Numbered from the whole stretch's first letter, positions 24 to 63,867 are shown. The stretch: DNA of 63,867 nt, filler included, from Vermamoeba vermiformis (GCA_045837725.1; 3 parts of 3 records of this genome joined end to end with filler, not necessarily neighbours in it), one strand, 5' to 3'. Notes: generated by a model not told the origin, from the letters alone. Program-made: numbers and translations.

Positions 24-1931
24 ATGCTTGCTATATTTATATTGTTAATAGACCTATTATCCACACATGATACTAGCCCACAAAATCCGAAACAAATCCA
101 AAAAAATAACATTCCGAAAACACAAATTCCACGCAAAAAACTATTACAAGTAAGACTCAAATATAAACATAACCGTGCACGCCAAAGCACTCTAAAAAAC
201 ATTGGCCCCGCAGTTTCAAACTGCCTAAAGAACTGGAAAAACACGATATACAATTTAAAAACACTCTTAATTATTCTACTAATGTATATTACTCTAAACA
301 TAAATAAACAAAAATTTCCTGAACCAATCTCATCTGAACCCGATCCCAAAATTACACCCAAAATATGTCTTATAATCACCCCTACGATAATAAATGGATC
401 ACTACTAAGCCGTCGTATCAGCTTAACACAAACGGAAAACCTTCTAGAAGCACAAACGGCCCGAACACGAACACATCCTGAAACATCGATCGAAACTTAC
501 ACCAACACAACATCACAAAAAGAAAGAAACACAGAAATAAAGCTCATAGGCGATATAACTAATCACAAGAGAGGTGAACAAAAAAATATAAATAGTAAGC
601 TGATCTTAAATCTAATTTATTCTCAAACTGTACTAATGAGCAAAAGAAGCAACCCGAGCTCAAATTGCTCATCTCCCAATAAACGGTTTAAAGCAGCGCT
701 CAACGTAAACCAATTCACAACACCATCAACGGAAGGAGGAAACATCCACGATGAGATCGAAGACGCATCAGTCGAAGAGACAACCAATATCGTTTCAGAA
801 ATAATGAACTTCTATAATGACCATGAAAACAACATAGGAGCTCCAAACAACAACAACAACGTCATCCAGACACTCGATGCACCCGATCAAGAGATCGAAG
901 TAACAAGCAACGAACCAAAAGAACACAACGCACAATATACTGAACAAACCAACCAAGAAGTTATCAACAACAACAATAACACTACTAAGCCTCCTTTAAC
1001 TACGCATCTGCCCAACAACGGATCCCAACTAGAAAACAACACGAATGGAATAACCGAAAAAACAACGAACGATAACGACATCGACATGGAAGAACAAACA
1101 TTACTTGACTTCCTCTCAATCGGAGATGATGACAATGATTTCTGGATCGGAGCTCAACAAATCTCACAGTCCCAACTAACCACGATCAACTCAAGAATCC
1201 GCAACATCGAAAACAAAATCGACATAAGTCGCAGCGTCACAGTCCTTATGAACAATATCAAAACTACCTACTGGTGTGCCTTCTCCGAACAAGCGAGAAC
1301 TGAGATCAGATCTCTTATCCCGATTGGACATACAATTATCACAGAACCACCAAGAGGAGAAGCGATAGTCCTTGATCGAGCAGCGATTATTATATCAGTA
1401 CCATTAGGACATAGAAACGAAGTACAGCAACAAGTTCAAACTAAGCTCCCCACCAAACCGTATTTCAAATGGTTTCTCGATGATTTCAACGCTACAAGAG
1501 AGAAGTGCTTAATTGTGTTCGATGCAGACGAACAACAACTTGATAAGATAATACCAACCAACGGTACATCGATCATCATCAACGGCACAAAATACTCACT
1601 CGAGATCAGTCATCCCAAAAATCTAACGTTATGGATGGGCCCAATTCCACCAAAATTAGCATACAACATCAAAGCAAGCAAATTGAAAATATTCTTAGAA
1701 GGCCAAATCTCGAAGACAAAAACGCAAGTAGTACGAGTATATATACCAAAATCGGACGGCCTACGCAAAGGAGAGTACGTACAAGTACACTGTGACAGTG
1801 AGATGGACGTCGCGACAATCAAACGTTTCCACAGAAAGATCGGATTCACCCGTGGCCACATTTTCGATATTTTCACACCAAGAGAATACGCTGAATCGAT
1901 TGCACGAAAGATCGCCGAGAAGAGAAAATGA
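24..1931 (+). CDS. LINE ORF1 nucleic-acid-binding protein (disordered N/T-rich region, short coiled coil, C-terminal RRM-like domain); real start may be ATG 637 (MSKRSNP)
   Basis: 635-aa ORF upstream of the pol ORF; heptad-like LTTINSRIRNIENKI; RNP2/RNP1-like LWMGPIP...KGEYVQVH. Confidence 0.8.
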   Translation: MLAIFILLIDLLSTHDTSPQNPKQIQKNNIPKTQIPRKKLLQVRLKYKHNRARQSTLKNIGPAVSNCLKNWKNTIYNLKTLLIILLMYITLNINKQKFPEPISSEPDPKITPKICLIITPTIINGSLLSRRISLTQTENLLEAQTARTRTHPETSIETYTNTTSQKERNTEIKLIGDITNHKRGEQKNINSKLILNLIYSQTVLMSKRSNPSSNCSSPNKRFKAALNVNQFTTPSTEGGNIHDEIEDASVEETTNIVSEIMNFYNDHENNIGAPNNNNNVIQTLDAPDQEIEVTSNEPKEHNAQYTEQTNQEVINNNNNTTKPPLTTHLPNNGSQLENNTNGITEKTTNDNDIDMEEQTLLDFLSIGDDDNDFWIGAQQISQSQLTTINSRIRNIENKIDISRSVTVLMNNIKTTYWCAFSEQARTEIRSLIPIGHTIITEPPRGEAIVLDRAAIIISVPLGHRNEVQQQVQTKLPTKPYFKWFLDDFNATREKCLIVFDADEQQLDKIIPTNGTSIIINGTKYSLEISHPKNLTLWMGPIPPKLAYNIKASKLKIFLEGQISKTKTQVVRVYIPKSDGLRKGEYVQVHCDSEMDVATIKRFHRKIGFTRGHIFDIFTPREYAESIARKIAEKRK

Positions 1932-4900
1932 AAACGAACACACCTCGACACTTAAAATATTAATAATTATAATCTTATTCACCGCATGTATCACTTTAAT
2001 AATAACATTTATAAACGAAATAAATTGCATATTAATTATCACAATTGTTAAACCACGATCCAAAAAAAATTATAGACGACTGAGTCTAAAGGTATTATAT
2101 ATACTTATAACACTATCGAAAAACACTATTATAATACCGACAATATACCACTCACAAATAAAACCAAAATTACGACCAAAACTTAAAGATCCATCTCGAA
2201 ACCAGCAGACAAAGCCCCAACGCGCCGAGAACCCTAAACAAAGTAGCGAAAAAATTGGAAATAATATTAAAGTAGCACTTGACAACGAGGAGATTAATAT
2301 TAAAACGCATTACACAAAGATCGCAATACAGGAGATCCGTAATGAATGCTCAAAAAGAATTAACTTACCACCGGAATGCATTAAATTATTCAAAGACGGT
2401 AAGATGATAACTAATATGAATAGCACCATAGATATCACTAACAACCAAGTCTGTTTAAAAGCCGAGATTGGCTTAATCGGAGGCGATCCGCAAATATCCT
2501 ATCCCAATCCCGACACAAAAACATGGCTTGGTAAACAAGTGAAAATAAAATTCAGTGATCAATACTACGAAGGCAGAATTATGGAAGAAAAAAGCCCGTT
2601 TAAGTTTCAGATCCAATGGTCACATCCGGAAAATGACAGCGAAATTGAACTGCTACCGCATGACTACGATGATAAGGACGAAAAAGAAGATGCGTGGTAT
2701 TTCCCTGAAGATCATAAACATAATATTAGACTAATTTCGAAAAATATCAACGGAGGCGCCGAAGACAAACTACAAGATATCGTCGAAGCTATAAGGAACA
2801 ATGAAATTGATTTTTATCTCATTCAAGAAACGAAAATTACTGCCGAAGACTACCTGTGTAGAAAACAAATACACAATGAAGTTGCAATTGAGTGGAACAA
2901 TCGCACTACGAAAGACATCGTCCAAGAGAGAAAAGAAAAACTAATAAAAAAGATTATGAACGATACTACCATAAACGAAACCGAGAAAGAAGACCGCATC
3001 AACTGGATCAACCCGCCAAAAAATGGTAAACACGGGATCGCAATTGCTTTCAATGTAAAATGGAAACCATTTATTAAAGAGATCATCAAAGATAAATACA
3101 AGCGTTTCATAATCTTGATCATTGAAGTAAATAAAGAGACGCTTGCAATAGTAAATGTTTACGGTCCGGCAACGTCAAATAAAACCGAAAAGAAAGCATT
3201 CTACGAACGCTTTCTTAAAAAGATCGATAAAATTATCGACAGAAATACAAACTCTCATATAATAATAGGAGGCGACCTAAATATCCGCCTTAAAAAATCA
3301 GATCCGAAATTCAATAAAACCTCTAAACATGCAAACCACTGCGAAACGGTAACGAACAACTTTGATATACGCGCTCTCGCCGATTGCTTCCGATATTGTT
3401 ACCCATTACGGAAAGGATTCACGTTCGAAAGAGAAAACAAAGACGAAACGTCACCAGAGATCTATCGAACACGATCCAGGATAGACTATTTCATTACCAA
3501 CAAAAAAGGACGTATTATCAACTGCGATATATGGAAACAAGACAGAATACATTCCGATCACCGCGCAATCATACTCGAATACAGCTTTACAACAGTCAAA
3601 GATAGCGCGACAAGCCAAGAACGGAGAGAAAAAATCGATACCCACAACCTTGATAAAAAATCAACGCCAAATAAGCTACAAACCCTCTACGAAAGCAGCG
3701 GATTCCACTTGACAGGCACCGAACCAATGTCCAGAATAAACGAAAAACTTAACGAATGGCACGAATTAATATTCCAAAAGTTCAAATCTAACAACAAACG
3801 AGAACCGTACAAACAAGATGCAGAACTAAACAACATCAAACGAAATATACATCAAATACTGAAAGCTCTCCGACTTAAACACAAAATATATATGCTAGCA
3901 TCGCCATCGAGAGAAAAGAAACTAAAAAAGATACTCGGGAAATGCAACATCAACACGAATGCGTCTGCAGAGGAAATCAAAGAAAGAAAACGCGAAGAGG
4001 TTAAAAAATATAATAAGAGGATAAAACAAATGAAAACAAATGATATCAATTCAAGAGTTGAACGACGACTTAGCCTACGAGACACAAATTTCAAAACATA
4101 TATCGGACTAATCTTCGAAACTCTAACAAGCAACAAGACAATCCCATTCATCAAACAAAACAACGTAACAATAACAGACAAAGAAGGCATCCGCAACCAA
4201 GTGCGCTCATTTTGGGAAGCAACACTCACGTCGTCTACCCCCCCAAGAACCGATACTCCTGTATGGCTCGAAAAAGACATTCACATCGAATATAACCTTG
4301 ACCTAATGCGTAAGATATCACTGCGAGAAATTCGAGAGACAATCGCTAAAATGGCAAACCATAAAACACCAGGTAGCGATAAAATACCGATCGACATACT
4401 TAAACACTGCTCAAAAGACGTACTGAAAGAGTACAAAAAGATATTCAACGCTATATTAATACAAAAACAGATCCCAACCAAATGGAAAGAATCGCTGATC
4501 TCATTAATCCACAAAGGAGGCGACCAAGGAGACCCGGGCAACTACAGACCGATTAGCCTACTCCAGGTAGAATATAAAATCTTCAGCAGTATTATAAAAG
4601 ACCGCCTCGAAGAGTACTTCGAAACAAATAAATTACTTTCGCAATTCCAAGCAGGGTTTCGAAGCAATATGAGCACGGCAAGACAAATTTCAATACTACA
4701 AAATATCATCGAAGACAATAAAACAACCAAAAAGCTACACCTAGAATATATCGATTTTAGTAAAGCCTACGACAGCGTAGAACATTGGGGACTTAAACAG
4801 GTTATGGAATACTATAAAGTGGACCATAACTTTATCGAATTAATAATTAACATGTACACTGATAATACCGCAGCGGTAATTGTAAACGGAGAGCTGTCTG

Positions 4901-7353
4901 CACCGATCGATATCAAAAAAGGAGTAAAACAAGGAGACGGACTCTCACCACTACTATTCATAATATTTATTAATCCAATTCTAAAACATATCGAAAACAA
5001 GTACGACGGATACGTACTCAATGTTGAAAAACCAATACGAATACCCACCCTTGCATACGCCGACGACATTGCACTAATTGCACAATCATTCAAAGAGCTA
5101 ACAGAAATGAGTGCGGATCTGGAAAAATTCTCGACGTACTACAACATACTCGTTAACCACGATAAGTCAGCCTTCACAGCGAATGAAACGACAGGAAAAG
5201 AGATTAAATTCTACAATAAAAACATCAAAACACTGAAAGCGAACGAGAACTACAAATACCTCGGCATACCTATGAATATCGAAGGTGACCTAACGCAAAC
5301 CTTTGAGCACTTCCAAAAGAAATTCTTAAATAAACTAGCCATAATTCGAACAAAAAACCTATCGGTGAACTGCAAAGCCGAACTGATAACACGAGTAATA
5401 CTGCCAATAATACAATACCCATTTCATAACATAATATTTCCAACTAAAACGCTCAACAAAATATCAGATAGCATATTCACGTGCCTCAAGAGGTCGATTC
5501 CGATACGACAAAACCTCAACAATGCACAATTCTCAATAAGTAGAGACGAAGGTGGATTGAACGTCCCCAACGTAGAAGACCTCAACTACAGAACATTCGC
5601 AGACTTCATATTCGAAAGAGGTCTCAACAGAAATGATATATTATCCGACATCCTGGAATACAGAATGAAGGCAGTTGATATCGATAACATCAATAAACTA
5701 GAGTCACCGAAAACCAAAATACAAAACATTAACCCCAACGACAACATTATAATAAATGCAATTAAATGCTGCCACCGATTTAAGGTCGGAATCACTATCA
5801 ATGAAAACGGCAGCCCCTTATTACAAAGTATTAACTCGTTACCGCTGCGAGATAAACTACGAAACATGAATATCAAATACACCAGAGATATTTCCACTCA
5901 AACCAAACTAATTAAATCGCGCTTCCATCTAAACCTAACCAGCAGTAGCCCATTAACGAATAAAGAATACCTAGCAGTCAGGAGAATAATCACAGATAAC
6001 GGCCAAATCAAGAACGAAATCATTGACAAAGAACTAGCCGAGGAGCGCAGCAGAACCAGAATAAACGCCGAAACCACTGAAGAAGACCTTATAACGATTG
6101 ATGGAGAGACGTGGGTATGGACAGATGGCTCATGGGACAAAGAACAAAATAAAGCGGGATTCGGTGTTTTCTTTACGCGCAACTCAAAACTCAACACAGC
6201 CCGCAGAACCAACGATATACAAGACTCGTTCGAGTCGGAACTAGAAGCTATAGAATATGCTATCAACACACATCAACGCCAAGACCTCAGAATTTTTACA
6301 GATTGCACGAGCGCGATACACGTACTAACGAATAAAAAGAAAAGACCACCACCAAAATACGAAGCTGTAATCAACAGGATAAAGGCAACGATCGCGGAAA
6401 AGAAAATTGGAGTAAGCTACGAACACGTACCTAGCCATATCGGCGATAAAATGAATAAACTACAAAAAGACCCCAAAAAGCTAAAAGAACTCAAAGAAAA
6501 ACTCAAGACCCTACAAGATAAATACGGAGACAACTACTCGAGAATAATCGTAGGCAACGAAGCGGCAGATCAACTAGCCAAACAAAGCCTCAAATTAATG
6601 AGAATTGGTGTAGTGCCAAGACTCGCCAGAAAATACATATTTACAATTGATGACACAATACAAACGGATAAACTAAGCAACCTAATCAAACTAGAAGAAC
6701 AACGAAGACACCACGAGACTGTTAAACTTAAAGACGTCAGAAAACTCCGAGCAGCAGCGCATAAAACCAGCTACCTGCATAACAAGGACTTTACCAACAA
6801 CGATGTAAACTTCATTTTCAAACTAAGGAATAAACAACTGAACGGCAAGGTAGAGATGATGCGCAAGATCAGGAAAGAAGGGACAGACCGAGAGAATCTC
6901 CGACTCAAAACAATATACACGAACAACCAATGCGTACATTGCAAAAAACCAGAAGATACCAAACATATAATCGCAGCGTGCAGAGAGTACGAACCAATTA
7001 GAAGAAAGCTCGACCACGAAATAGACGGCATCCTCGAAAAATATAAAATACCCCCAGGAGACCCATGCAGATGGTATAGAATAAAGAATAGAAACTTTAG
7101 AGACGCGGCAGAATTTGAAAAAGAAGAAATAAATAATATTGCCGGAGTTTCCGGTTTCCTTCCAAAATACACGTATAATTACCTCAAACAATTTATAGAA
7201 GATGAAGAAAATTTAATAGAACTAAGTACTAAACTAATACATACCCAGATAAAATTCTTCCGCAAAATCTACAGATACAGATGCAAGACTTTCTTCGACG
7301 AGCTGAAGAAAACGATAGACCGAGAAACATTGGCTAAAACAAGATATAAATAA
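1792..7353 (+). CDS. LINE ORF2 polyprotein: Ubl + Tudor-like + APE endonuclease + reverse transcriptase + RNase H + zinc-binding motif (start uncertain)
   Basis: APE motifs NINGG, IQET, NVYGP, GGDLN, RIDYF, SDH (2725-3585); RT motifs KTPGSD, YRPISLL, QAGFR, DFSKAYD, GVKQGDGLSP, YADD (5056-5067), YKYLG; RNase H TDGS, ELEAI, TDC, HVPSH, GNEAAD (6112-6585); CxxC..H..C (6931-6981). Confidence 0.95.
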   Translation: MTVRWTSRQSNVSTERSDSPVATFSIFSHQENTLNRLHERSPRRENENEHTSTLKILIIIILFTACITLIITFINEINCILIITIVKPRSKKNYRRLSLKVLYILITLSKNTIIIPTIYHSQIKPKLRPKLKDPSRNQQTKPQRAENPKQSSEKIGNNIKVALDNEEINIKTHYTKIAIQEIRNECSKRINLPPECIKLFKDGKMITNMNSTIDITNNQVCLKAEIGLIGGDPQISYPNPDTKTWLGKQVKIKFSDQYYEGRIMEEKSPFKFQIQWSHPENDSEIELLPHDYDDKDEKEDAWYFPEDHKHNIRLISKNINGGAEDKLQDIVEAIRNNEIDFYLIQETKITAEDYLCRKQIHNEVAIEWNNRTTKDIVQERKEKLIKKIMNDTTINETEKEDRINWINPPKNGKHGIAIAFNVKWKPFIKEIIKDKYKRFIILIIEVNKETLAIVNVYGPATSNKTEKKAFYERFLKKIDKIIDRNTNSHIIIGGDLNIRLKKSDPKFNKTSKHANHCETVTNNFDIRALADCFRYCYPLRKGFTFERENKDETSPEIYRTRSRIDYFITNKKGRIINCDIWKQDRIHSDHRAIILEYSFTTVKDSATSQERREKIDTHNLDKKSTPNKLQTLYESSGFHLTGTEPMSRINEKLNEWHELIFQKFKSNNKREPYKQDAELNNIKRNIHQILKALRLKHKIYMLASPSREKKLKKILGKCNINTNASAEEIKERKREEVKKYNKRIKQMKTNDINSRVERRLSLRDTNFKTYIGLIFETLTSNKTIPFIKQNNVTITDKEGIRNQVRSFWEATLTSSTPPRTDTPVWLEKDIHIEYNLDLMRKISLREIRETIAKMANHKTPGSDKIPIDILKHCSKDVLKEYKKIFNAILIQKQIPTKWKESLISLIHKGGDQGDPGNYRPISLLQVEYKIFSSIIKDRLEEYFETNKLLSQFQAGFRSNMSTARQISILQNIIEDNKTTKKLHLEYIDFSKAYDSVEHWGLKQVMEYYKVDHNFIELIINMYTDNTAAVIVNGELSAPIDIKKGVKQGDGLSPLLFIIFINPILKHIENKYDGYVLNVEKPIRIPTLAYADDIALIAQSFKELTEMSADLEKFSTYYNILVNHDKSAFTANETTGKEIKFYNKNIKTLKANENYKYLGIPMNIEGDLTQTFEHFQKKFLNKLAIIRTKNLSVNCKAELITRVILPIIQYPFHNIIFPTKTLNKISDSIFTCLKRSIPIRQNLNNAQFSISRDEGGLNVPNVEDLNYRTFADFIFERGLNRNDILSDILEYRMKAVDIDNINKLESPKTKIQNINPNDNIIINAIKCCHRFKVGITINENGSPLLQSINSLPLRDKLRNMNIKYTRDISTQTKLIKSRFHLNLTSSSPLTNKEYLAVRRIITDNGQIKNEIIDKELAEERSRTRINAETTEEDLITIDGETWVWTDGSWDKEQNKAGFGVFFTRNSKLNTARRTNDIQDSFESELEAIEYAINTHQRQDLRIFTDCTSAIHVLTNKKKRPPPKYEAVINRIKATIAEKKIGVSYEHVPSHIGDKMNKLQKDPKKLKELKEKLKTLQDKYGDNYSRIIVGNEAADQLAKQSLKLMRIGVVPRLARKYIFTIDDTIQTDKLSNLIKLEEQRRHHETVKLKDVRKLRAAAHKTSYLHNKDFTNNDVNFIFKLRNKQLNGKVEMMRKIRKEGTDRENLRLKTIYTNNQCVHCKKPEDTKHIIAACREYEPIRRKLDHEIDGILEKYKIPPGDPCRWYRIKNRNFRDAAEFEKEEINNIAGVSGFLPKYTYNYLKQFIEDEENLIELSTKLIHTQIKFFRKIYRYRCKTFFDELKKTIDRETLAKTRYK

Positions 7354-14820: not shown

Positions 14821-14920
14821 NNNNNNNNNNNNNNNNNNNNNNNNNNNNNNNNNNNNNNNNNNNNTTAATTAATTAANNNNNNNNNNNNNNNNNNNNNNNN
14901 NNNNNNNNNNNNNNNNNNNN
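14821..14920. other. Artificial contig spacer (N-run with TTAATTAATTAA)
   Basis: 100-nt N block containing a six-frame stop linker. Confidence 0.98.
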
Positions 14921-15612
14921 TACGATTCGTCGTCAATCTCGCAGCAACAACGACTAGGACTCAATCACATTGCAGTATTTGCGGCGAATATGGCTATCGG
15001 AGGTACTTCCGAGATCCATCCGGCGAGAAAAATCGATTGATTTTTTATATCACAGAACGAGTGCGCAATTCAAATCTGAAATACCGCGTGTTTGTAGTGC
15101 TACGGCTGATAAGAAAATTCAATCCTGTGGTCACAGTAGCAGAGGCTGAGTTCAATGTGGGATACGCGTGCGAAAATCCCAAGATTTATTTGCCAATCAT
15201 TGAGACAGATATGATCGATGTGCAAAGATTTGGTGCATATGTTATGGCTGGCATGAGTACGTCAGGTAAGTATAAAAATATAGTCGTAGTTAGTTTTTTC
15301 GCCACAAACATTTAAAACTTTCATTCAATTTAATAATTTGTGTCAACAGGCAAGTCTTTCACGAGCCAGCTCATGTTTGCAGAATATACTAGATCAAGGA
15401 TGATCGAACAAAACCTTGTCGAAAGAATTCGACTGTTGACATTCTCTAAGGACCCAGAAACGCAATCTTATGCGCTACAAGCATTGAGGGAGTTTAACAC
15501 AACTGGTCTTAATGTTCCGTCACTGAAAATGACGTGTTATTGGCACTTGATGATGTCATGTGGTGTTGAAACTTGTAGAAAGATTTTGCAAGAGAATAAC
15601 ATCAACTATTAG
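14921..15612 (+). CDS. 3' part of an ARM/helical-repeat protein with a BC-box-like motif (5' truncated by gap)
   Basis: Helical ORF pieces (VQRFGAYVMAGMS, LVERIRLL..TQSYALQALREF), VPSLKMTCYWHL; introns. Confidence 0.45.
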
Positions 15613-20935: not shown

Positions 20936-23785
20936 CTACAATTGCTCGAGATCTTCGTAGACTTGCAAAACTTCGTCGATCTCGTCCGTAGCATTCAACT
21001 TCAACTTTTTTAGCGTTGGTAATATAATATTAGCTTTGCTTATTTTCAGTAGCTCTTTAGGCACCATAACCAACGGATTATGAAACAAGCGTAACGAGAA
21101 TAGATTAGTTAAGTTTCCAATATCGCTCGGAATAAATTGCAATCTATTCCTAGAAATATGGAAACATTCTAAACTACTCATCAGGCCTATTTCCGTCGGT
21201 ATTATGCTTATTTGATTATTAGATAAAATCAGCTTATTTAAGCTCGTTAACTGGCAGATCTCTTTCGGGATCACCTTGATCTCGTTGGCGGTGAGGTTGA
21301 GCACTGACAAATTATGCAATCTTGATATATCCTTGGGCACTACACTAAGTAGATTGCCAGGAATAACAAGCCGCAATAAACTCGTCAATTTGAAGATGCC
21401 ATCGGGGATCTCGCGAATCCGGTTTTGGATCAAGCTTAATTTGGTCAATAGCTGTAAATTTTGAATCTCGTTTGGTATCTCCTGGATCGAATTGAACGGT
21501 GCGTAGAGCTCGAGTAGTTTGGTTAATAAGCCAATTTCTGATGGCAATGAAGTGATTCTGTTGCTGCCTAGATCCATCGCTTCGAGCTGCGTGCACGCTG
21601 TGATCATGTGCATCGGCACCGACGTTAAAGAATTTCCTTTTATGGAAAACTATAATAAAATATTCGTTAATTATCGCACTCGATTTTAACGTAGCAAGCG
21701 ATAAATTTTTCTTGTCGACCACATCCGGATTAGGTTATGAACAAGAAGCTACTTAGTAATATATAGATTGATATTATTACGTACCTTCTTTAAATGAACA
21801 AAATTGGAGAAAAATTCCGGTGCTGAAGCAAGCCAGTTATTTTGTAGGAAGAATTTTTGTAGCTTTGTTAGCCGTGACATTTCAACTGGTAATTCGGCGA
21901 TATTATTATCGTTTAATTCTAATGTTCGCAATTCTGTCATGACTCCTATATAATAAAGCATTAAAACAAATTGTAACGGATGCGATCCAAACAACAAAAA
22001 AATTTCCTACTAAACCTCGTAACAATAATTAAATAAAGTTAATATTTGGATATGCGACTTAGTATTATAATTACCTATAGACGTTGAAATTTGCGTCAGA
22101 GCTACACCACATCCGCCACATCCGAGTCTCGTCAACTTTTCCAAAGTAAATACATCAGCAGGCACACTACATGGATTCCTTGAGAATGACAGCTCCATAA
22201 GATTGGTCAATTTCATTAATTCTGGCGGAATTTCTGTGATTTGATTCGAATTCAGCGTCAAGACTCGTAGCTGCATTAACGCTGAAATTTCTGACGGCAA
22301 TGAAGTCAAGCTATTTGAATGTAATAATAGGCCAGTGAATCTAGTCAAGTGGTGCATATCTTCTTCGGATACGGCCATTTCGTGGACTCGATTTTGTTGC
22401 AGATCCAACGACTCCAATCCGGTCGCTTTCCAAATTTCTCGTGGTATTGATTCAATGGCATTAAAACCCATTTGCAACGTATCCAATTCTAACAAGTTGC
22501 TTACTCCTATTTAATTAAGCTCGTTAGCTAAGTATCATTCGAAATTGCAAAAATATCCAGATCGCGATCTAAACAAAAAAAATTGCGAAAAATCCCTAAA
22601 CTAATATTTAACGAAACTAAGATTATTTACATATATTATAAGTATAATTCTATCGTTTAAGACGTACCTTCGGGTATTTTGGTAATGTTGTTGTAAGATC
22701 CGTAAAATGCTTTCAATTTAGTCAAGGCTGAAATACTGTCCGACACGCTAGTCAAATGATTTCTGCTAATTAATATCGTTTCTAACTTTGATAACGTGAA
22801 TAACTCTTCGGGCAACTCTTTCAACTCGTTTCCACTTAAAAATAGCTCTCGCAAATTTGTCAATTGCGAAATTTCGCGCGGTAATTGCGTTAATTTGTTT
22901 CTTCCCACCAATAATGTTTGCAGCTTGGTCAAATTCATTATAGGCGTGATAACACTAAGGTTGTTTTGTCGTAGTGATAAGAAAGATAGGGACACCAATT
23001 TTGATATGTCATCGGGCACTGTCGTCAAATTATTGGCTCGTAATGTCAATTCGTGTAAATTTGTGCAATGTAACATTTGCCGTGGAAAATTTGCAAAGTA
23101 ATTGAAGTGTAATAAACACGTTTGAAGCTGGATCAACCTTGAAAATTCCTCGGGCAAGCTGCTTAATGAATTTTTCCATAGATTAAGGACTTGTAAGTGC
23201 GTTAATAGTCCTATTTCGGGTGGAACGTTTGTCATGGGCGGATCCATTTCTTTCAAAACTAACAAAGGCTGTTTTGATTCGTAGTTCCGCATGATTACTT
23301 CCGTCGCATCTTTACGACTATTATCTTCCTAATAATGAATAAAAATAAATAATTGATTACAACGATTTAGGTCAATCGGACAAATAAAGGTCGATTAAAT
23401 ATTCATGAAATTTATATGACTACTTTAAGCTAAATTAAATATGGCAAAAATATCTCTATAAATATTAAAATCCTCAGTATAATTATTACGCTATGGTGTT
23501 CAATTATAAGATAAAAATTTTTCGTCAAGACATTACCTGCCACGGATCGAGCTTGGAATGTTTTGACATCGAGGGGAAGTCATCGTCTTCACTAGATATT
23601 GGTCTATCTTGAAGACCATCGGCCAAGTCTAATGATTGCAATTGATTAGAAAATTTTTTCAGATTTATTTTTCCATTATTGTTAAAAGTCAAGACCGAGC
23701 ATATAATTAAATATGCCATAATTAATTTTAAAATATTTTCGATATTTTTAATAAGCTTAATTCGAATAATACCTTCAGCATCCAT
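20936..23785 (-). CDS. Leucine-rich repeat protein (SHOC2/LAP-type LRRs)
   Basis: More than 20 LxxLxLxxNxLxxLPxEI repeats over several exons. Confidence 0.9.
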
Positions 23786-24023
23786 TTTTAGATGAGATGA
23801 CAAAAAATTCTTTCAAAAGGTCTGAAGGCGATAGTTCGTGCCAGTTTTATATTTACATAAATAAATAATAGAAAAGTTGTTGTTTCCACAAGCGGTCAAT
23901 AAATAAAGTTTGATTCTTTCAATTTTGATTTTTACACGTAGATCGACGACAACACACGTGTATTATTATGCAGATAATGCAATATACACCACAGTGCCTG
24001 GTATTTATTGTTCTTTTCAAATA

Positions 24024-25763
24024 ATGGAGCGAAGTGTGTTGGAGCTGCCCGAGGATGTGCTGCGCGACATTTGGCATTACTTATCTCTGCCTGATGTAAT
24101 TAGGTTAGTAAATATTATTTTAAATCCAGTATAAATACCAAAAAAAGGACTATTTAACGCTTATTAGTTGTATTTATTAATAGTGCAAATTAAACCAAGT
24201 TGATCCAAGCTCTTTATTTAATTAATTATTATTAGGTTCGGAATGACCGCCAAAAATATGTTTGATTCAACGTGGCCTTACTACCAAATTTTGCAAACGG
24301 AAAGGGATTGGCCGATCCGCGTAAATATTTTCTTTCTCTCACAGGATCTGTCTCATATTCGCGAACTCGACATATTCTATGCTCCCGATGATGGAAGACT
24401 CGAAAAAGACAGACAAAAAATATTGCAACTTCACGATCTGGTAGCAGCAACAAGACTACCAAATCTTCGATCGTTGAAAATAGATCTGACTTTTCCAAGC
24501 ACCATTTGCGACGATATGACCGTTGTAAACGAACTTATACGCACTCATACTCATCTCCAATCGTTGGTTTGGTACTCAGCAGAGGTCGAAGAAAATTTCA
24601 ACGTGGGTCATTTTTTCAAGAACTATACAAGACTGACTTCCTGAACTATCGAGACAAAGAACAGACGTAAGTACTTGTCTAAAAAATCCATTGAATTAGG
24701 AAAAGAAAGCGAATTAAAATTCAATTTTTCATCCAGTTCAGTCTTGTCAATTCACCATAAAGCAAAGTACAATAATAATAATTTACTGAAACTGACCCGC
24801 GCTCTCGTATTGAAGTACGTGGATTTAATGAACTGACGCAATTGAAGAGTTTGGATTGCTCTTTCTATGGACAAATGGACGATGCAAGTTTTTCAGAAGT
24901 CGTGGAACTACCGCACCTTAAAACTCTCGATGTTAGGCTCCGCAACCTCATATCCGACGAATCATTCACAAAAATTACAAAATTGACCGAATTAGAGGAA
25001 TTAGATATTAATTGCGATGCTGGCATCCCCAGCTTGACTCCACTATTGAAATTACCTAGTTTAAAATCATTAATGTATGATTCTGTGGGGGGGTTGCCAT
25101 TAGTCTCTGTAATTGGACAGCTATACAACCTCACGAGTCTCCAGATCGATCTTTTTTCATTACGTCAGCACCTTGATTTCAACTTACTAACAGGGCTAAC
25201 GAACCTGTTAGAATTAGATATGTACTGCGCTACTACGGCAGCCAATTTAGCAAATTTTACAAAGCTAACGAAACTGATCTGGCAAAATCGTGGTACCAGT
25301 CAACCGAGAATGTCGAATCTGCCACCAAACTTGAAAACATTCAGCATAAGCAGCCTAATTGCGGGTGAAAATGCTATTCAAGAGATCTGTAGCTTGGAAA
25401 AATTGCAGGAACTAAAATATCTAGATGTGGAATTCAATCCAGTAATTATGGCGCACTGGATCACGCGATTAACTCACCTTACTGACATAACTATGGTACC
25501 TAGTATCCCTCAGGGTAATATTTAATTCATTAGTAGTATTATTATTGAATTCTAATTCTTTAGTAGAGTTGATCCGAGCCCTTGAAAAACTACCGAATCT
25601 GGTTTTTTTGAGCTGCAGAGATATTCCAGTTAATTCGAAAGAAGATTTGGCTAAACTAACGCAGTTGATGGAGTTATCATATTGGAAAGGTTATAAAAGG
25701 GGACTTCAGGTCAAATTTCCGTTCAGAGTTACCTTCGTTGGAGATCTTACTGACAAATACTAA
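24024..25763 (+). CDS. F-box + LRR protein
   Basis: MERSVLELPEDVLRDIWHYLSLPDVIR F-box; LxxLxxL repeats in later exons. Confidence 0.8.
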
Positions 25764-56885: not shown

Positions 56886-57757
56886 ATGTTAAAGCGATCT
56901 GGCATCTCCGCCGCCCAAAATCTTTTCGGATCGAAGGCTGGAGTACCCTCAAAGACGATTATGTTGGGCAAAATGATTTTTAACAAGAAGCAAGGCCGAG
57001 GCATGTTGTTCGACAGTACGTTCTCACTAATTAACATCGGAAAATGTTTCTAATTAATACGTTTCTGGTTCTGTGATAAATTATTATTATTAGAGCACTT
57101 CGATATGAGATATAAAGAAGAACCCGAGAAGCACGTAACCGGGACTGTTACTTTTGAAATATATCGTGTTAACAGAGAATCGACCAATCCAAAACCATAC
57201 ATACAAATCTTCAAAGTTAACACAGCTGAATGCGGCCCCATGATTCTCGATGCTTTGATTAAGATTAAAAACGAAGCGGACCCTACTCTCACCTTCAGAA
57301 GATCGTGTCGTGAGGTAAGGACGCTGCTTAAAATATCAAGGATTAATTATTGCTTAATTATTGGTCTATTGTCCAAGTTATTACAATTTATTTCTTGATA
57401 TGAATAGGGTATTTGTGGCAGTTGCGCCATGAACATTTCTGGAACTAATACACTGGCTTGCACAAAGAAGATTGCTGATGCTGTTGACTCTAAGAACAAT
57501 GCCAGGTAAGTTTCTATTAAAACACTTCAGTGCTTTTCCTTACAACATTTCAAAGTGACAAAAATTTATACATTATCTTAGGATCTTCCCCCTTCCCCAC
57601 ATGCCTATTATTAAAGATTTGGTTCCTGACCTCAGCAACTTTTTCCAACAAGTAAAGTCTATCAAGCCTTGGCTCGAGCCTCGTATCGAACCTGGTCGTG
57701 AGAACAAAGAGGTTCTTCAATCTCCTGCTATGCGTAAACAACTTGATGGCCTTTATG
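56886..57757 (+). CDS. SDHB: Succinate dehydrogenase iron-sulfur subunit, 5' part; interrupted by a transposon
   Basis: [55 protein letters not shown]; the expected ECILC.CC continuation is replaced by the TIR. Confidence 0.95.
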
Positions 57758-57831
57758 GGACGAACTTTTAACAAGGTGAAAAATATCCCACTATCAAACT
57801 GTAGACTTTACACTTTTAATATAAACTTTAC
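57758..57831 (+). repeat. Left TIR
   Basis: Reverse complement of 63794-63867, 5 mismatches in 74 nt by manual comparison. Confidence 0.95.
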
Positions 57832-57859
57832 ACTTTTAGTCTAAACTTTCTGTTAATAA

Positions 57860-60604
57860 TCAGTGGGTGCCTTCCTTTGCTCGGTATTGTTTTGCAACTT
57901 CATAAACAATCTTTCTAATATACCCTTTGGTATATTTCTCTTCAAATACATCATGTGCCAAGAAGTACAGGAGATTGAAGGATATGCCTTGTTTTTCAGC
58001 TTTGACCCTATTCAAGCCTGCAATGCACTTTTGAATGTCTTCTTGTGAAACCTTTGGATAATTTGCTTTTCGTGTTGTAAAGTGAAGGAACTTCAAATCT
58101 TCCATTGTACTGAAGGACAATAGTTGTGCAAAGGTTTCTCCAGCATTAAGAGAGTATGGCGTAGTCAGCTTTAAAGATAGCTGCACCATTTCATGTAGTT
58201 TAGTTGCCAATGGATTATCATTCAGCTTATTTTCCTTGCTGGGAAAATGCAGTGTTAGTAGTGAGTGTAAAGTTGACAGTACGCACCTGTAATTGAACAG
58301 AAATTGCAAATGTGTAATAATAGCATTTAGTAGCTCGAATGAACAGGAACCACTGTAGAAAGGTGAAGATTTTTTCAGGTACTTATGCCATGCCTCATTT
58401 GCATTAGTTCCCCGTTTAAACTCTTTTAAAGACGCTGAGTTCAAAACTGCTTTTGAGTATCCAGCTTTGTCACTCAAAAAATTGTTTACAGCACCTTCCA
58501 CTTTGGTGGTAAAAATTGAAGGGAAGCTTGCTGGCTTTGGAGAGCCACTGAACGAGTAATGTTAGTGTAAAGTGTAAAGTTTGCACTTTAAATTTTACCC
58601 TGTTATTGTTTCGGCCAAATTTTCGATAAACAGCTGCATATCTTTGTCGTTATCTCGGTTTGCTGCCCTATATGTATCCAGCCATAAATGTAATTCGTTA
58701 TGTAGGAACTCTGCCGTTGGGGATTGCTTGTTGGCAAGTTGAGCAAATATGGCACTCAAATCCTTTTTACAACTGTAGTAATCTGGTAAAAGAAGTCAAA
58801 ATGAGAATAACAATTTGTTATGTTACCTGGGTGATTGTGGGCTAACACAGTATCTATTCTATGGATCACATGCCACACATCCTGGCAGGTTTTTGGTGGA
58901 TTGTTTGCATTTGGAAATGAATTCCAAAAAGCTTTTTCAATCACACTCTTATCTATGTGCATAAATTTAATAGTTAGTAGCTGGTTTTAGTAAATTGTTA
59001 GGTACCTTTGCGGCTATCATCAGTAAAAATGTGAGTTGTCACAGGAGCAGGTAGAAGGTCAAAAATTGCTTTCAACTCAGAGAACATGTAACTTCGTTCA
59101 TCTGATGGTACTAATTTAGTACGTAGCACTTGGCCATGTTCATTTAAGATGGACAGCAAAGAAGCCTTGACTTGTACCTGCAATGGTAAACTGTAAACTT
59201 TACAGTAAGAAAAATTTATTGTCCCTTACCCTTTTGCCATCAGACACAGCAGACAAAGCAGAGGCTATTTTATATGTGTGGTCTATCCGCAGAACAGCTC
59301 CAGTAGATTTTACCAAATGTGATGTGTAGTTGTTGAAAAACTGTTGTTGCATGCGAAACTTATACAGATACAGGGCTTCCAATGTTGAAGAAGATATTAC
59401 ATAACTATCTTCAACAGATTGTAGAACTTTAGGAATATCATCCTCAACGAATACATGTGTGAACAGTGCCTGAACAACCTCATTATAAAAAAGAATGTAA
59501 AGTGTATAGTTTACACTTGCCATTCTAAGTTTATGCGTTAAGTTTGCAACCCAACCAGTAAATATTGCTCGGGATAGAGCTGAAAAGTTGAAACAATGGT
59601 CTGGGATTGTATTGAATATGTACTCAAGGAAGTGGGTTGTCACCACAGTTCTATCAAACACTACAATTTGAGGGGTAACTTCATAGTCCTGCAGTTCCAA
59701 CTGTAGTAAAGAGAATCTACAATCATGTATCTGGCAATAATAGCGGTGATATTGAAGGAGGAATGGTGTTGAAACATCATAGCAGCGGTGTCGTAAATTA
59801 TGGCCGTTCAATGAAATTTTGCACTTCTCATCCTACAATAAGTTAGTCAAAATGACAATAAAAAATGATACACGGTACCTGTTGGTGCTTGTTGCAGTAC
59901 TGAGGAATGTACGAAAGCATATTCACTTTTTGCTTAGCTTGCCAAAGTTGAAGGTGTTCTACTGGCATGACTGATTCGATTGATGAAGCAAGATCATCCT
60001 CTCGTTGAGTATTAAAAACCGGTGGCTCATGGTCATCAATTAACAGCTGAGAAAGGCTTGAAATAAGAGGCTCCATGGGGTCAGTATCTGCAGAATTGGA
60101 TTAGTGTAAAGTGTAAAGTGTAAAGTATAAAGTGTGCCACACGGTAAACTTTCCAATGGGCGAGACCAATTCCCGCGCTTTTTAACCGTTACCTTTTGCT
60201 TTTTCTTCTTTCATTAGTTGTGCCTTCGATGTCTTTGACCTCTCTGGTTTATGTACTGGGGCAATACGAGCCTTTGTTTGTTTTTGTGTGTGTGGTAACC
60301 GTTCTTTGTCCGTTTTCAAAGTTGTGGCTGTTTTAATTTTGAGCACATCTGTTAAAAAATTAGAAAAGTGTGGGAAAATATATTAAAATAATTGACCTGC
60401 ACTATGCATCATAGCTTGTTGATGCTGCTTCATCTCCTTTTTAGATCTCTTTGTTATGCCACAGATGGCGTTTTTTTTGTAATTGAAAAGCTGGCAAGTG
60501 TAATAAACCTTGTGGTTACCAGCCTTTCCAAAAGTAATTTTTTGGTGACAGGTGTAATCTTTACTGTCACTATCAAGTTGCACCAGTGTAAACTTGTTCG
60601 ACAT
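57860..60604 (-). CDS. Spliced MULE-like DDE transposase
   Basis: N-terminal C..C..H..H zinc motif, Cys/His cluster, LRIDHTYK (D1), IFTDD (D2), CQDVWH (DxxH), RGTNANEAWH (E); the exons checked join without stops. Confidence 0.8.
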
Positions 60605-60647
60605 CTTGGTCGCCAAAAAATAAATAACTGCAACGAGTAACGCAACG

Positions 60648-63600
60648 ATGTCACAGTATAATACAAGATCTAGGGGACGTGCCCTAGAAGCAGATAATAA
60701 TAATAACAACTCAAAAAAAAGACGTCGCAGCTCAGATTCGAATTCGGCAGAGCACTCAGGTGAAGAAAATGTTACCAAAAAACGTAAAACAGGTAAATAT
60801 ATATGCAAAATATTTTTTTTAACGTCCCTGTATATTTTTTATAATTTTCTGTGTCGGATTCCACATTTGCTAATCCGCGCCAGATGGCAACAACAACGGA
60901 GCTGAACGTGATGCTAATAGCATCAATAAAGAGGACGATCAACGTGACCACGCGCCCGGCAAGTCCCGCTCCGAGAAGCAAACAGGTAAGGCTTGTCCCG
61001 AATTTTTCAAAATTCCGCATTTGCTAATCTCGCACCAGATCGCAACAACAAAGCTGAAGAAACCGATGCTGATAGCATCAATAATAAGGACGACCAACGT
61101 CCTCACGCGCCCAGCAAGTCTCGCTCCGAGCAGCGAACAGGTAAGTCTCATCTCGAATCTAAAGAAATTCCAATTTCGCTAATCTCGCACCAGATCGAAA
61201 CAACAACAGTGCGGAAGCAGAAGCTAATACTGTTGATAAGGAGAATGACCAGCGTCCTCACGCGCCCAGCAAGTCCCGCTCCGAACAGCTAACAGGTAAG
61301 TCTCATCTCGAATCTAAAGAAATTCCAGTTTCGCTAATCTCGCAACAGATCGAAACAACAAAGCGGAAGAAACCGATGCTGATAGCATCAATAACAAGGA
61401 CGACCAGCGTCCTCACGCGCCCAGCAAGTCCCGCTCCGAGCAGCAAACAGGTAAGTCTCATCTCGAATCTAAAGAAATTCCAATTTCGCTAATCCCGCAC
61501 CAGATCGCAACAACAACAGTGCGGAAGCAGATGCTAATAGCGTTGATGTCGAGAATGACCAGCGTCCTCACGCGCCCAGCAAGTCTCACTCCGAGCAGCA
61601 AAAAGGTAAGTCTCATCTCGAATCTCCAAATCTAATTTTTTGCTAATCTCATGTCAGCTAACAACAATAACGGAGCTGAAAGTGATGGCAATAGCGCCGA
61701 TGAGGAGGACGATCAGCGTCCTCACATGCCTGGCAAGTCCCGCTCCGAGCAGCGAACAGGTAAGTCTCATCTCGAATCTAAAGAAATTCCACTTTCGCTA
61801 ATCTAGCACCAGATCGCAACAACAAAGGTGCTGAAACTGATGGTGATAGCGCCGATGAGGAGGACGACCAGCGTCCTCACGTGCCTAGCAATTCCCACCC
61901 CAAGCAGCAAAAGGGTAAGTCTCATCTCAATCTGAAGCGAATTCGCATTCACTAATCCCGCACCAGATCGTAACACCAAAGCTGCTGAAACTGATGGAAA
62001 TAATGCCGATGATGAGGATGATCAACGCGCTCATGCACCTGGCAAGTCCCGCTCTGAGAAGCGTACGGGTAAGTCTCATCTCGAATCTCAACAAATTCCA
62101 CTTTCGCTAATCCCGCACCAGATCGCGACAACAAAGGTGCTGCCAAGAAAACAAATAGTCGTAGCAAACGCACAAATGATCGCTCAAACATTTCCGACAA
62201 ATCCGATGAAGAAAAAGAGCAAGGTAAGTTACATTTAAAAAAATCTTTGGTGATCTAACTCTGAATTTGCTCTGCAGCTGACTTAAGTGATGCAAATAGC
62301 AGCGAGGAGCGCAGCAATCATACTACCAGCAAGAATAGCAAGCCTCGCAGGGAGACAACAGCAAAGCAGCAGCAGGAAAAGAAAACTAAGCAAACATCCT
62401 TGCCCGAAGGTACGTACAGCTGTAGACTTTACACTGTAAACTTTACACTGTAAACTTTACACTAACCGCGTTCGTTGGCAGGCTTACGTGACGCCTCAGC
62501 CCAACCATATGCTACTGCAGATGTTTTAGCAACTGTCCACAAATCGTCTCTTGTTGCTGTTCTGGGGCAGGGTGAAGAGACATGGTATGCTATTGTGAAG
62601 GCACCACCAAAAAAGAAGACCTCTTCTGCACATCTGACTGTTGATTGGTTGGAAGTTGCACGAACAGCTAGCAATGGTGCTCTAATCCTTCAGAATTCCG
62701 ATGAAAGTCCCTCAATCATTGAGCTCGGAGCAGTGTTGGATGTCGTGCGTCACACACCCATAGTGGGTGGAACTTCAATGGTGGACAAGGCAGAACAAAA
62801 GAGGCTTGCTGGAATTCGTATGTCAAACAAAATATCATTATTTGCTCTAATTGTGGCAAAGGGGAGAGAATAGTGACCCAAAGTGCAAAAAAGAAGAGCA
62901 AAAAGGGAGCGAAATCGTAAGTGAAACTGTAAACTTTACACTTTACACTTTACACTTACTTATTTTCCAGGGTACCAATTGATGTTGAGGAGGAGATAGA
63001 AGAAGGCGAACCTGAACAAGCCCGTACTCCTGTATCTAAGCATAAAAAGGCACCTTTGTAAGCATATTAATTACACATATATGCACTGTTACTAATTGCA
63101 CTAGGCCTGCACCAGCCAAACAACAAAAGCCTGTAGACGGTTACGATGCTGGGGAGGTTGGTGAATCTGGTGAAGAAGAAAATAACCTTGAAGAAACACC
63201 AACCGCCATTTCAGAATTTTCGCATGAATGTGGAGTCACAGTGTCTTCAGTCTATGAAAAAACTGATGCATGTAAGTGCCCCATTACTTGTTTTATTTAA
63301 TCTAATCTCTGTTCAAGGGGAACTCAGGCTTGGCAAGTTCATACTTTGGTTAACAAAAAGAGGACTGATGCAAAAATCGTTTTTGCTGGGCCCTACTGGG
63401 CAAGCCAGGGGGGCTACCTCCTCTTCCCTGCACCAGTATTTATACTACCGTACGTGCCACTGAAATATGTAAACTGTAAACTTTACACTAACAACTTTAC
63501 AGTAACCCACGCTTTTCTGAATGTCAAGCTACCTACTGCCCAAAAAAAGCGTTCTGTGTTGCTTGGTGCTGGATTACCTGAAGGTGCACATCACAACTAC

Positions 63601-63777
63601 ACTTTGCTGCAGTACTCTTTCATTACAAAAGAGGTCGAGAATGAGACTCTTGCGTTCAAGACTTTGGCTACAGCTCATAATTGGATGCTTGAAAAGTCAC
63701 TTGCTTTGTTTGAGTTCTCAGTGGGCGCAAAGAACAACACAATTTACATTTGTATTCCTCCATTGAGGCCATTTTAA
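60648..63777 (+). CDS. Transposon accessory gene: NLS-like start, 34-aa tandem repeats, small beta-barrel-like domain (3' end uncertain)
   Basis: KKRRR near start; many phase-1 GT-AG introns; globular exon LVAVLGQGEETWYAIV...LTVDWLE. Confidence 0.65.
60884..62223 (+). repeat. Tandem array of 154-155-bp units, each a 102-bp exon + 52-53-bp intron
   Basis: Donors at 60986, 61141, 61296, 61451, 61606, 61760, 61915, 62069; intron consensus GTAAGTCTCATCTCGAATCT...GCTAATCYCGCACCAG. Confidence 0.92.
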
Positions 63778-63793
63778 GTTTGTAACGTTAGAA

Positions 63794-63867
63794 GTAAAGT
63801 TTATTTTAAAAGTGTAAAGTTTACACTTTAATAGTGGGATATTTTTCACCTCGTTAAAAGTTCGTCC
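63794..63867 (-). repeat. Right TIR (window ends at the element terminus)
   Basis: Inverted copy of 57758-57831. Confidence 0.95.

Follow-up and report, generated by a model that had tools for sequence, protein, structure and literature searches.

Why should the motif that marks the ends of a DNA transposon reappear inside the introns of that transposon's own genes? The question is raised by a two-gene DNA transposon of 6.1 kb that occupies the end (57757-63867) of a 63,867-nt stretch of DNA from Vermamoeba vermiformis (GCA_045837725.1), which joins parts of three records with filler and to which we refer as the window. A sequence-only reading of the window had reported that a motif of the element's terminal inverted repeats (TIRs) recurs as arrays within the element's introns, and had offered three explanations: that introns host binding sites without coding cost, that the motif couples splicing to the element's own proteins, or that it seeds new introns. 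Our analysis leads us, with moderate confidence, to interpret the intronic arrays as conserved internal binding sites, still putative, for a factor that reads the element ends.

The TIR sub-repeat is a near-palindrome, TGTAAA-C-TTTACA, with 6-nt half-sites at 7-nt spacing. Both ends of the element (left, 57800-57849; right, 63796-63825) reiterate this short motif in both orientations: the left subterminal region (plus strand) holds 2.2 copies of a motif-containing 20-nt unit, with a tandem repeat called at 57805-57849 and 14-mer matches at 57800 and 57820, and the right TIR holds one exact motif copy at 63812-63825. All 16 exact occurrences of CTTTACAC fall within the element (57806-63819) and none in the 57,756 host bases (2.10 expected for the whole window; largest value among shuffles, 7), and the 27 matches to the 14-mer at ≤2 mismatches all lie at 57800-63826, compared with 0.96 expected. 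The density of CTTTACA was 15.5 per kb in the element ends (3 matches in 193 nt) and 11.6 per kb in the element introns (16 matches in 1381 nt), versus 0.22 per kb in element exons (1 match in 4494 nt) and 0.07 per kb in host DNA (4 matches). This element-versus-host scan bears out the earlier remark that host introns of the window lack such arrays; the motif is not equally frequent in host introns or exons.

Clusters of the 13-mer TGTAAACTTTACA (≤1 mismatch) number nine in the element, two in the TIRs and seven internal, and all seven internal clusters lie within candidate introns (P = 3.8e-5 at an intron share of 0.233; P(≥6/7) = 7.9e-4 if the last array is counted as coding). Overall, eight arrays occupy eight short candidate introns, all in the 3' halves of gene 1 (57860-60604, minus strand), which encodes a putative DDE-type transposase, and the divergent gene 2 (60648-63777, plus strand). 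Measured from the left end, the arrays of gene 1 lie at ~510, 810, 1435, 1745 and 2350 nt; measured from the right end, those of gene 2 lie at ~390, 925 and 1425 nt.

Intron calls rest on reading frames, splice signals and relatives, and the introns are candidates throughout; a brute-force search for splice paths was too permissive and was discarded. By GT/GC-AG borders, an open frame and comparison with relatives, seven of the eight motif intervals qualify as introns, and two of them (I4 and I9) are confirmed by the relatives. The seven intervals listed by the sequence-only reading coincide exactly with splice-model intervals. In gene 1, all on the minus strand, I2 (60088-60192, 105 nt) carries four 7-nt repeats that run into CACTAAT; I4 (59470-59520, 51 nt) has the motif immediately after a GC donor; I5 (59178-59229, 52 nt) has a palindromic motif ahead of its acceptor and is the sole array in the opposite orientation; I8 (58548-58598, 51 nt) has an array followed by CACTAAC; and I9 (58239-58286, 48 nt, in frame and without a stop), which was absent from the earlier list and is the eighth motif intron, holds one motif copy. 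In gene 2, on the plus strand, a 72-nt intron (62410-62481) carries 3.4 copies of a 14-nt unit followed by CACTAAC, and a 54-nt intron (62917-62970) carries one 14-mer and three 7-nt repeats.

The remaining listed interval, 63450-63502 (plus strand), is a candidate intron only: its donor would be GTACGT, its branch site CACTAAC and its acceptor possibly CTTTACAG. Three models are compatible with the frame: a 53-nt intron together with one at 63272-63317, the 3' part of one long intron of 231 nt, or coding sequence once 63272-63337 is removed. Codon-usage scores upstream of this array (-1.4 in frame A and -4.2 in frame B) are both non-coding-like and do not settle its status, and the only homologue of the C-terminal piece of gene 2, a 98% identical copy, gives no help in choosing the frame.

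Other details of the sequence-only reading also held. The possible GC donor at 59520 is indeed found here; a different copy, in DNA run X1, has a GT donor (59519 G>A, plus strand), as does the I4 homologue in the relative L001, which also contains an in-frame stop, and the GC donor is a change specific to the window copy. In the window, I4 contains no stop and keeps the frame, and the 17 residues that it would encode have no counterpart in the exons of L001 or the relative L002. As had been claimed, the arrays of four introns run into the branch site: the last repeat joins CTAAC/T 11-16 nt from the acceptor, and CTTTACACTAAY occurs four times compared with 0.01 expected. Orientation mostly follows the sense strand of each gene, with CTTTACA in introns sense in 15 cases versus antisense in 1 and with 7 of 8 arrays sense (P = 0.035), although the core is near-palindromic and orientation is therefore meaningful only for the 7-nt direct arrays.

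The motif introns also tend to have lengths divisible by three (6 of 8, versus 2 of 17 other candidate introns; Fisher P = 0.0036, or 0.031 with the repeat-unit introns of gene 2 counted once). If retained, I4 and I9 would add 17 and 16 in-frame residues, respectively. These lengths are not kept in L001 or L002 (2 of 4 in each).

To assess conservation, we drew on one metagenome scan, which yielded three related loci, L001, L002 and L003; the alignment used, A2, replaced an earlier alignment, A1, that was too diverse, and A2 scans of viral_contigs and genome_contigs returned no relatives. L001 (3.5 kb) spans exons 3-10 plus one element end, and shares with the window 70% amino-acid identity over five exons of equal length and 69% nucleotide identity over seven exons. 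Only 34 of 92 fourfold sites (37%) are identical between the two, indicating that neutral sites are saturated. Even so, L001 has the motif at the same place in the homologues of I4, I5, I8 and I9 and none in the homologues of I3, I6 and I7; the same four of seven introns would be marked in both elements with a chance of 1/35. The best ungapped blocks shared with the window were 18/19 identical in I4, 16/16 in I5 and 21/25 in I9 (shuffle p 0.000 for each) and 12/14 in I8 (shuffle p 0.073), whereas I3, I6 and I7 had ≤6 nt in common (shuffle p ≥0.63). Summed over the motif introns, 67 of 74 block positions are identical. Array copy number differs (1-2 units in L001, 2-4 in the window), and none of the motif copies kept by L001 is fused to CTAAC. 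Judged from the sequences compared, the branch-point fusion is specific to the family of the window copy.

A second comparison came from L002 (6.3 kb) and L003 (1.1 kb), two copies of one family with 40% identity to the window element. The intact end of L003 finishes as the window element does (...TTCGTCCC), but its subterminal motif is TTTAAACT(T/A)T(A/G)AA, with the half-site TTTAAA. The introns I3, I4, I5 and I8 of L002 hold this L003-type variant and not the window motif. At ≤1 mismatch, clusters of TGTAAACTTTACA (window-type) and TTTAAACTTTAAA (L002-type) numbered 9 and 0, respectively, in the window element, 3 and 0 in L001, and 0 and 4 in L002 (Poisson P = 1.3e-6 for L002), with no L002-type variant in 4.1 kb of L002 flank. 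Likewise, the longest exact strings shared with the L002/L003 end were 13 nt each for L002 I3, I4 and I5 and 10 nt for I8, compared with ≤9 nt for the window ends, whereas the eight motif introns of the window share 10-17 nt exactly with their own ends and ≤9 nt with the other ends (exon windows, ≤9 nt). The two positions at which the window and L002 variants differ are symmetry mates in the palindrome (G..C in the former, T..A in the latter), the pattern that a changed half-site would produce.

The introns themselves are old. The positions of I4, I5 and I8 are common to all three family members and that of I9 to the window element and L001, and the I9 donor is the end point of the open reading frame (ORF) fragments P0002, P0004 and P0006 from relatives (P0003 and P0008 read on), which together point to an early origin of these four introns. 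In I4 of all three elements, the motif adjoins the donor. The host flanks of L001 (2290-3135) and L003 (780-1140) encode leucine-rich-repeat proteins, as do genes of the window (for example, 20936-25525), suggesting that the relatives probably reside in similar organisms.

Selection on the intronic copies, the identity of their motif with that of the ends and the joint change of both in L002 point to one sequence-specific factor that would read ends and introns on DNA. The recognition site would be the 6-nt half-site TGTAAA/TTTACA, in either orientation at 7-nt spacing, and would probably be read as double-stranded DNA by an element protein, for which the candidates are the transposase, through its Cys/His-rich N-terminal domain, and the gene 2 product. 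The element is tightly packed: the start codons of the divergent genes are 43 nt apart, the TIRs follow directly after the stop codons and the 3' untranslated ends of both genes fall within the TIRs. With introns as the sole internal non-coding DNA, extra sites would be placed there, and selection would keep them in introns, free of coding constraint. Two uses seem most likely: the sites might lengthen the subterminal platform and so promote or restrict synapsis of the ends, or they might act as a roadblock or titration device through which the amount of protein regulates expression of both genes. The earlier idea that introns host sites without coding cost is thus indirectly supported by retention in homologous introns of L001 and by the family's own variant in L002; binding by a protein, the identity of that protein and the effect of binding are what we infer from these patterns.

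Several observations weigh against this interpretation. Only two independent relatives were found, and these cover only the 3' part of gene 1. The sole visible end of L001 holds only a degenerate copy, with 3 mismatches to the 14-mer, and L001 introns share 10-16 nt with the window ends compared with 6-9 nt with their own. Seventeen of the 25 candidate introns lack the motif and only 8 carry it, which qualifies the sequence-only reading. Neither the 15:1 sense bias nor the four CTAAC/T fusions are predicted by DNA binding alone, and the fusion is not conserved in L001; both features may reflect compatibility with splicing, as in introns of 50 nt an array must abut the donor and the branch site. 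The site could instead be recognized by a factor of the host. Contig junctions at array edges in X1 may represent rearrangements, or cross-matching arrays of other elements. Finally, RNA runs X13 and X15, which carry the same species label, gave 0 depth on the element interior (57980-63643) and matched host exons at only 90-95%; these runs may derive from a strain or paralogue without this copy.

A more specific version of the binding-site interpretation is a self-dosage sensor, in which an element protein bound to arrays that abut donors and branch sites would stall the polymerase or hinder spliceosome assembly on the nascent transcript and so lower transposase output as the protein builds up, while the same sites extend the synaptic platform. 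We regard this version as tentative and, taken as a whole, unlikely.

An alternative is that the repeats act in RNA, as weak branch sites, pyrimidine-rich enhancers or partners of the 5' splice site, with the likeness to the TIRs being secondary. The sense bias, the entry of the last repeat into the branch site and the position of the motif beside the I4 donor in all three elements would fit such a role, and the predicted fold of the 62917 intron (z = -5.0) places its donor within a stem; the fold of I8 has z = -2.7. We nevertheless consider it improbable, as the core is palindromic and also present in the TIRs, the intronic variant of L002 tracks the change in its end motif (a link that splicing signals do not call for), L001 has the motif without the CTAAC fusion and host DNA has no motif. 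Across the eight motif introns the folds vary in z-score from +0.67 to -5.0 and have no structure in common, and RNA structure was rejected as a shared feature of these introns. On the earlier proposal that the motif may couple splicing to the element's own proteins, the pertinent observations are the zero depth of the RNA runs on the element interior, the lack of the CTAAC/T fusion in L001 and the inconsistent folds. Readings of the motif as forkhead-like or as a poly(A) signal were also dropped; the L002 variant does not fit them.

We give equally low credence to the idea that the arrays are non-functional by-products, that is, TIR fragments or slippage products of gap repair or recombination that are tolerated only in introns. 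Consistent with it, array copy number differs between the window and L001, and X1 unitigs end next to arrays (57791 is joined to 59190 in one contig, and 62924 is a loose end in two), although arrays of other elements may cross-match. By-products would not be expected to show 67 of 74 identical positions in the same places of the same introns when fourfold sites are 37% identical, nor variants that match the end of their own family. No insertion or deletion at the arrays is among the three listed for X1, and the arrays thus do not look like unstable microsatellites.

More doubtful is an origin of the motif introns from end-derived sequence, resembling a miniature inverted-repeat transposable element, in which donor-like GTAAA, acceptor-like TTTACAG and a branch site with TAAC supplied the splice signals. 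The motif does contain such splice-like strings, CTTTACAG is the candidate acceptor of the 63450 interval and the I4 motif directly follows its donor. However, the introns are shared down to 40% identity, which would make any such origin ancient, no host intron or exon in the window has the motif, and retention of the motif would be left unexplained; this origin is also compatible with the arrays being binding sites. The earlier proposal that the motif seeds new introns is not supported, given the age of the motif introns shared by relatives and the lack of any array in the host DNA of the window.

How does this arrangement compare with known systems? Subterminal repeats bound by element proteins are textbook features of En/Spm and Ac. 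In Ac/Ds (hAT), subterminal AAACGG hexamers in both orientations are recognized by the N terminus of the transposase and are confined to ~250 bp per end, in the untranslated leader and trailer and not in introns. The scattered 6-nt half-site described here is similar, but also occurs in introns instead of being confined to the ends. The internal activation sequence of phage Mu is bound by the transposase DNA-binding domain and promotes assembly of the transpososome, and the half-repeat enhancer of Sleeping Beauty reportedly does the same as an extra site for the DNA-binding domain of its transposase; these are unrelated systems with one site per element, in non-coding DNA. Introners and spliced-out transposons have ends that carry splice-like signals. 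In those cases transposons act as introns of host genes, whereas here the motif lies in ancient introns of the element itself; we found no introner-like behaviour, as the 57,756 host bases of the window contain no motif.

A further likeness is to En/Spm (CACTA) elements, which carry multiple copies of a short motif, in either orientation, close to each end and encode a second protein; the motif and its binding protein diversify between families, and the bound protein can block transcription (PMC2613891). Specifically, TNPA of En/Spm binds the subterminal repeats and can block RNA polymerase (PMC2613891). The En/Spm repeats lie within a few hundred base pairs of the ends, whereas here copies extend to ~2.3 kb inside, in spliceosomal introns of both genes; moreover, this element does not have CACTA termini and its exon pieces have no Pfam match. 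The element thus shares with En/Spm and Ac a reiterated end motif, but not its confinement to a subterminal few hundred base pairs. In piggyBat, activity is reduced by an additional transposase site located within the end, and the authors suggest that suppression by subterminal sites may be widespread (PMC11707139). There, just one site lies in the end of an element of the piggyBac family and not in an intron, and conservation across families is not part of that case. In our literature searches, which covered papers without supplementary files, we found no description of a transposon that retains its end motif within introns of its own genes.

The left TIR (57757-57831, plus strand) has its outer boundary set by the flanks of other copies, and the right TIR lies at 63794-63867 (minus strand); the arms (57758-57831 and 63794-63867) are 74 nt each and 93% complementary. 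The window stops in the right TIR, apparently 1 base before the end of the element, as the ends of L001 and L003 finish ...CCC. Termini begin GGGACGAA and are not CACTA. In X1, two contigs reach the left end from different flanks, at 57756 and 57757, and summed contig depth is 443-1345 in the element versus 265 in the flank (summed depth does not equal copy number). The additional left flanks and higher depth indicate that the element is present at more than one place and that its left boundary is 57757. With TIRs bounding a multicopy unit, the element has the structure expected of a TIR cut-and-paste DNA transposon. In run X3, which is labelled as another organism, low-depth pieces of the element occur across 57830-63595, mostly at 95-99% identity, with none of the flank; this depth is too low to separate a shared element from a close strain.

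The insertion interrupts the coding sequence of the gene for the succinate dehydrogenase iron-sulfur subunit (SDHB; 57105-57757). An upstream SDHB exon matches Pfam Fer2_3 (E = 4.3e-10), and the last exon aligns to solved SDHB chains through ...LDGLY, residue 148 of 235, which is the insertion point; the cluster-binding C-terminal part is therefore cut off. An X1 unitig spans the SDHB/element junction, and none of the loose ends listed indicates an empty site. RNA reads match the SDHB exons at only 90-95% and may come from a paralogue or a different strain. In animals, a system of RNA excision triggered by TIRs has reportedly been described. In X13, a few reads hold the first 33 nt of the TIR only (57757-57789) with unrelated sequence on both sides, which suggests that this sample contains transcripts of other elements that share these termini but differ internally.

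Gene 1 starts at 60604 and stops at 57860-57862, and removal of nine GT/GC-AG intervals of 44-105 nt leaves one frame of ~748 amino acids (748 in the splice model), with the putative catalytic core spread across five exons. The motifs DHTYK, FTDD/N, QD[VI]WH and NE.WHK are conserved in gene 1, L001, L002 and the ORF fragments, and can be read as those of a putative DDE, D-x2-H type transposase. They presumably resemble MULE-type signatures. However, MULE and Transposase_mut profiles gave no match at E up to 1 or 10, a weak test given the short exon pieces of the window, L001 and L002; KDZ transposase and CxC profiles had no Pfam match on the same pieces, and Pfam gave none for 15 exon pieces and fragments of gene 1, gene 2 and the relatives. 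KDZ/Zisupton elements have an 8-bp target-site duplication (PMC12730594). Atlas leads for gene 1 were clusters of DUF6729 (0.92-0.97) and of KDZ-associated CxC4/5 (0.85), which serve as leads only, and we found no mention of DUF6729 in the literature.

A PDB sequence search returned nothing for exon 1 of gene 1, and word-indexed searches for longer homologous proteins with a 210-amino-acid piece and the three-element alignment found none. An exhaustive HMMER search with a 228-amino-acid C-terminal piece matched 9 proteins at E ≤0.001 among 1.84 billion representative proteins, eight of them ORF fragments of 89-188 amino acids and one of 445 amino acids; the six that were looked up all came from Logan assemblies, one also from JGI/IMG. 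Judged by these matches, the element family is rare and its superfamily unclassified. Single-sequence AlphaFold models (predicted local distance difference test, pLDDT, of 52 for exon 1 of gene 1 and 43 for the gene 2 domain) were too poor for a fold search.

Gene 2 has ~16 candidate introns by splice models, and neither a Pfam match on its exon pieces nor an Atlas lead for its domain was found. Nine of these ~16 intervals belong to a 155-nt exon-plus-intron unit (~102-nt exon and 52-53-nt intron) that is repeated 8.3 times in tandem at 60858-62142 with 79% identity. The units keep donors, GCTAAT branch sites and acceptors, and encode a repetitive, acidic, serine-rich segment. I2 of gene 1, at twice the usual length, is GC-rich in its first half, where ATTGG (CCAAT in inverted form) occurs twice, ~450-500 nt upstream of where gene 2 starts. 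These features and the 43-nt spacing of the start codons suggest that promoters may lie inside the partner gene.

Elsewhere in the window, a non-long-terminal-repeat retrotransposon (1732-7353) has a single frame of 1873 amino acids with endonuclease, reverse transcriptase and RNase H domains, in a region that is strongly A-rich on the plus strand (AT skew ~0.3). A run of N at ~14875-14925, read as X in an open frame, is an assembly gap.

Subterminal repeats are usually regarded as belonging to transposon ends. In this autonomous element, an end-type site also recurs across the interior, confined there to introns, and has been kept at homologous introns while synonymous sites became saturated. 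If the sites are bound, the element would offer a compact, testable case of cis-acting DNA carried inside its own genes without coding cost, and possibly a self-limiting circuit in which the amount of transposase feeds into transcription or splicing. As a practical matter, intron-less transposase constructs of such elements would lose these cis sites. Should the self-dosage version prove true, a eukaryotic DNA transposon would be using its spliceosomal introns as a cis-regulatory genome, with ends and introns co-evolving in specificity.

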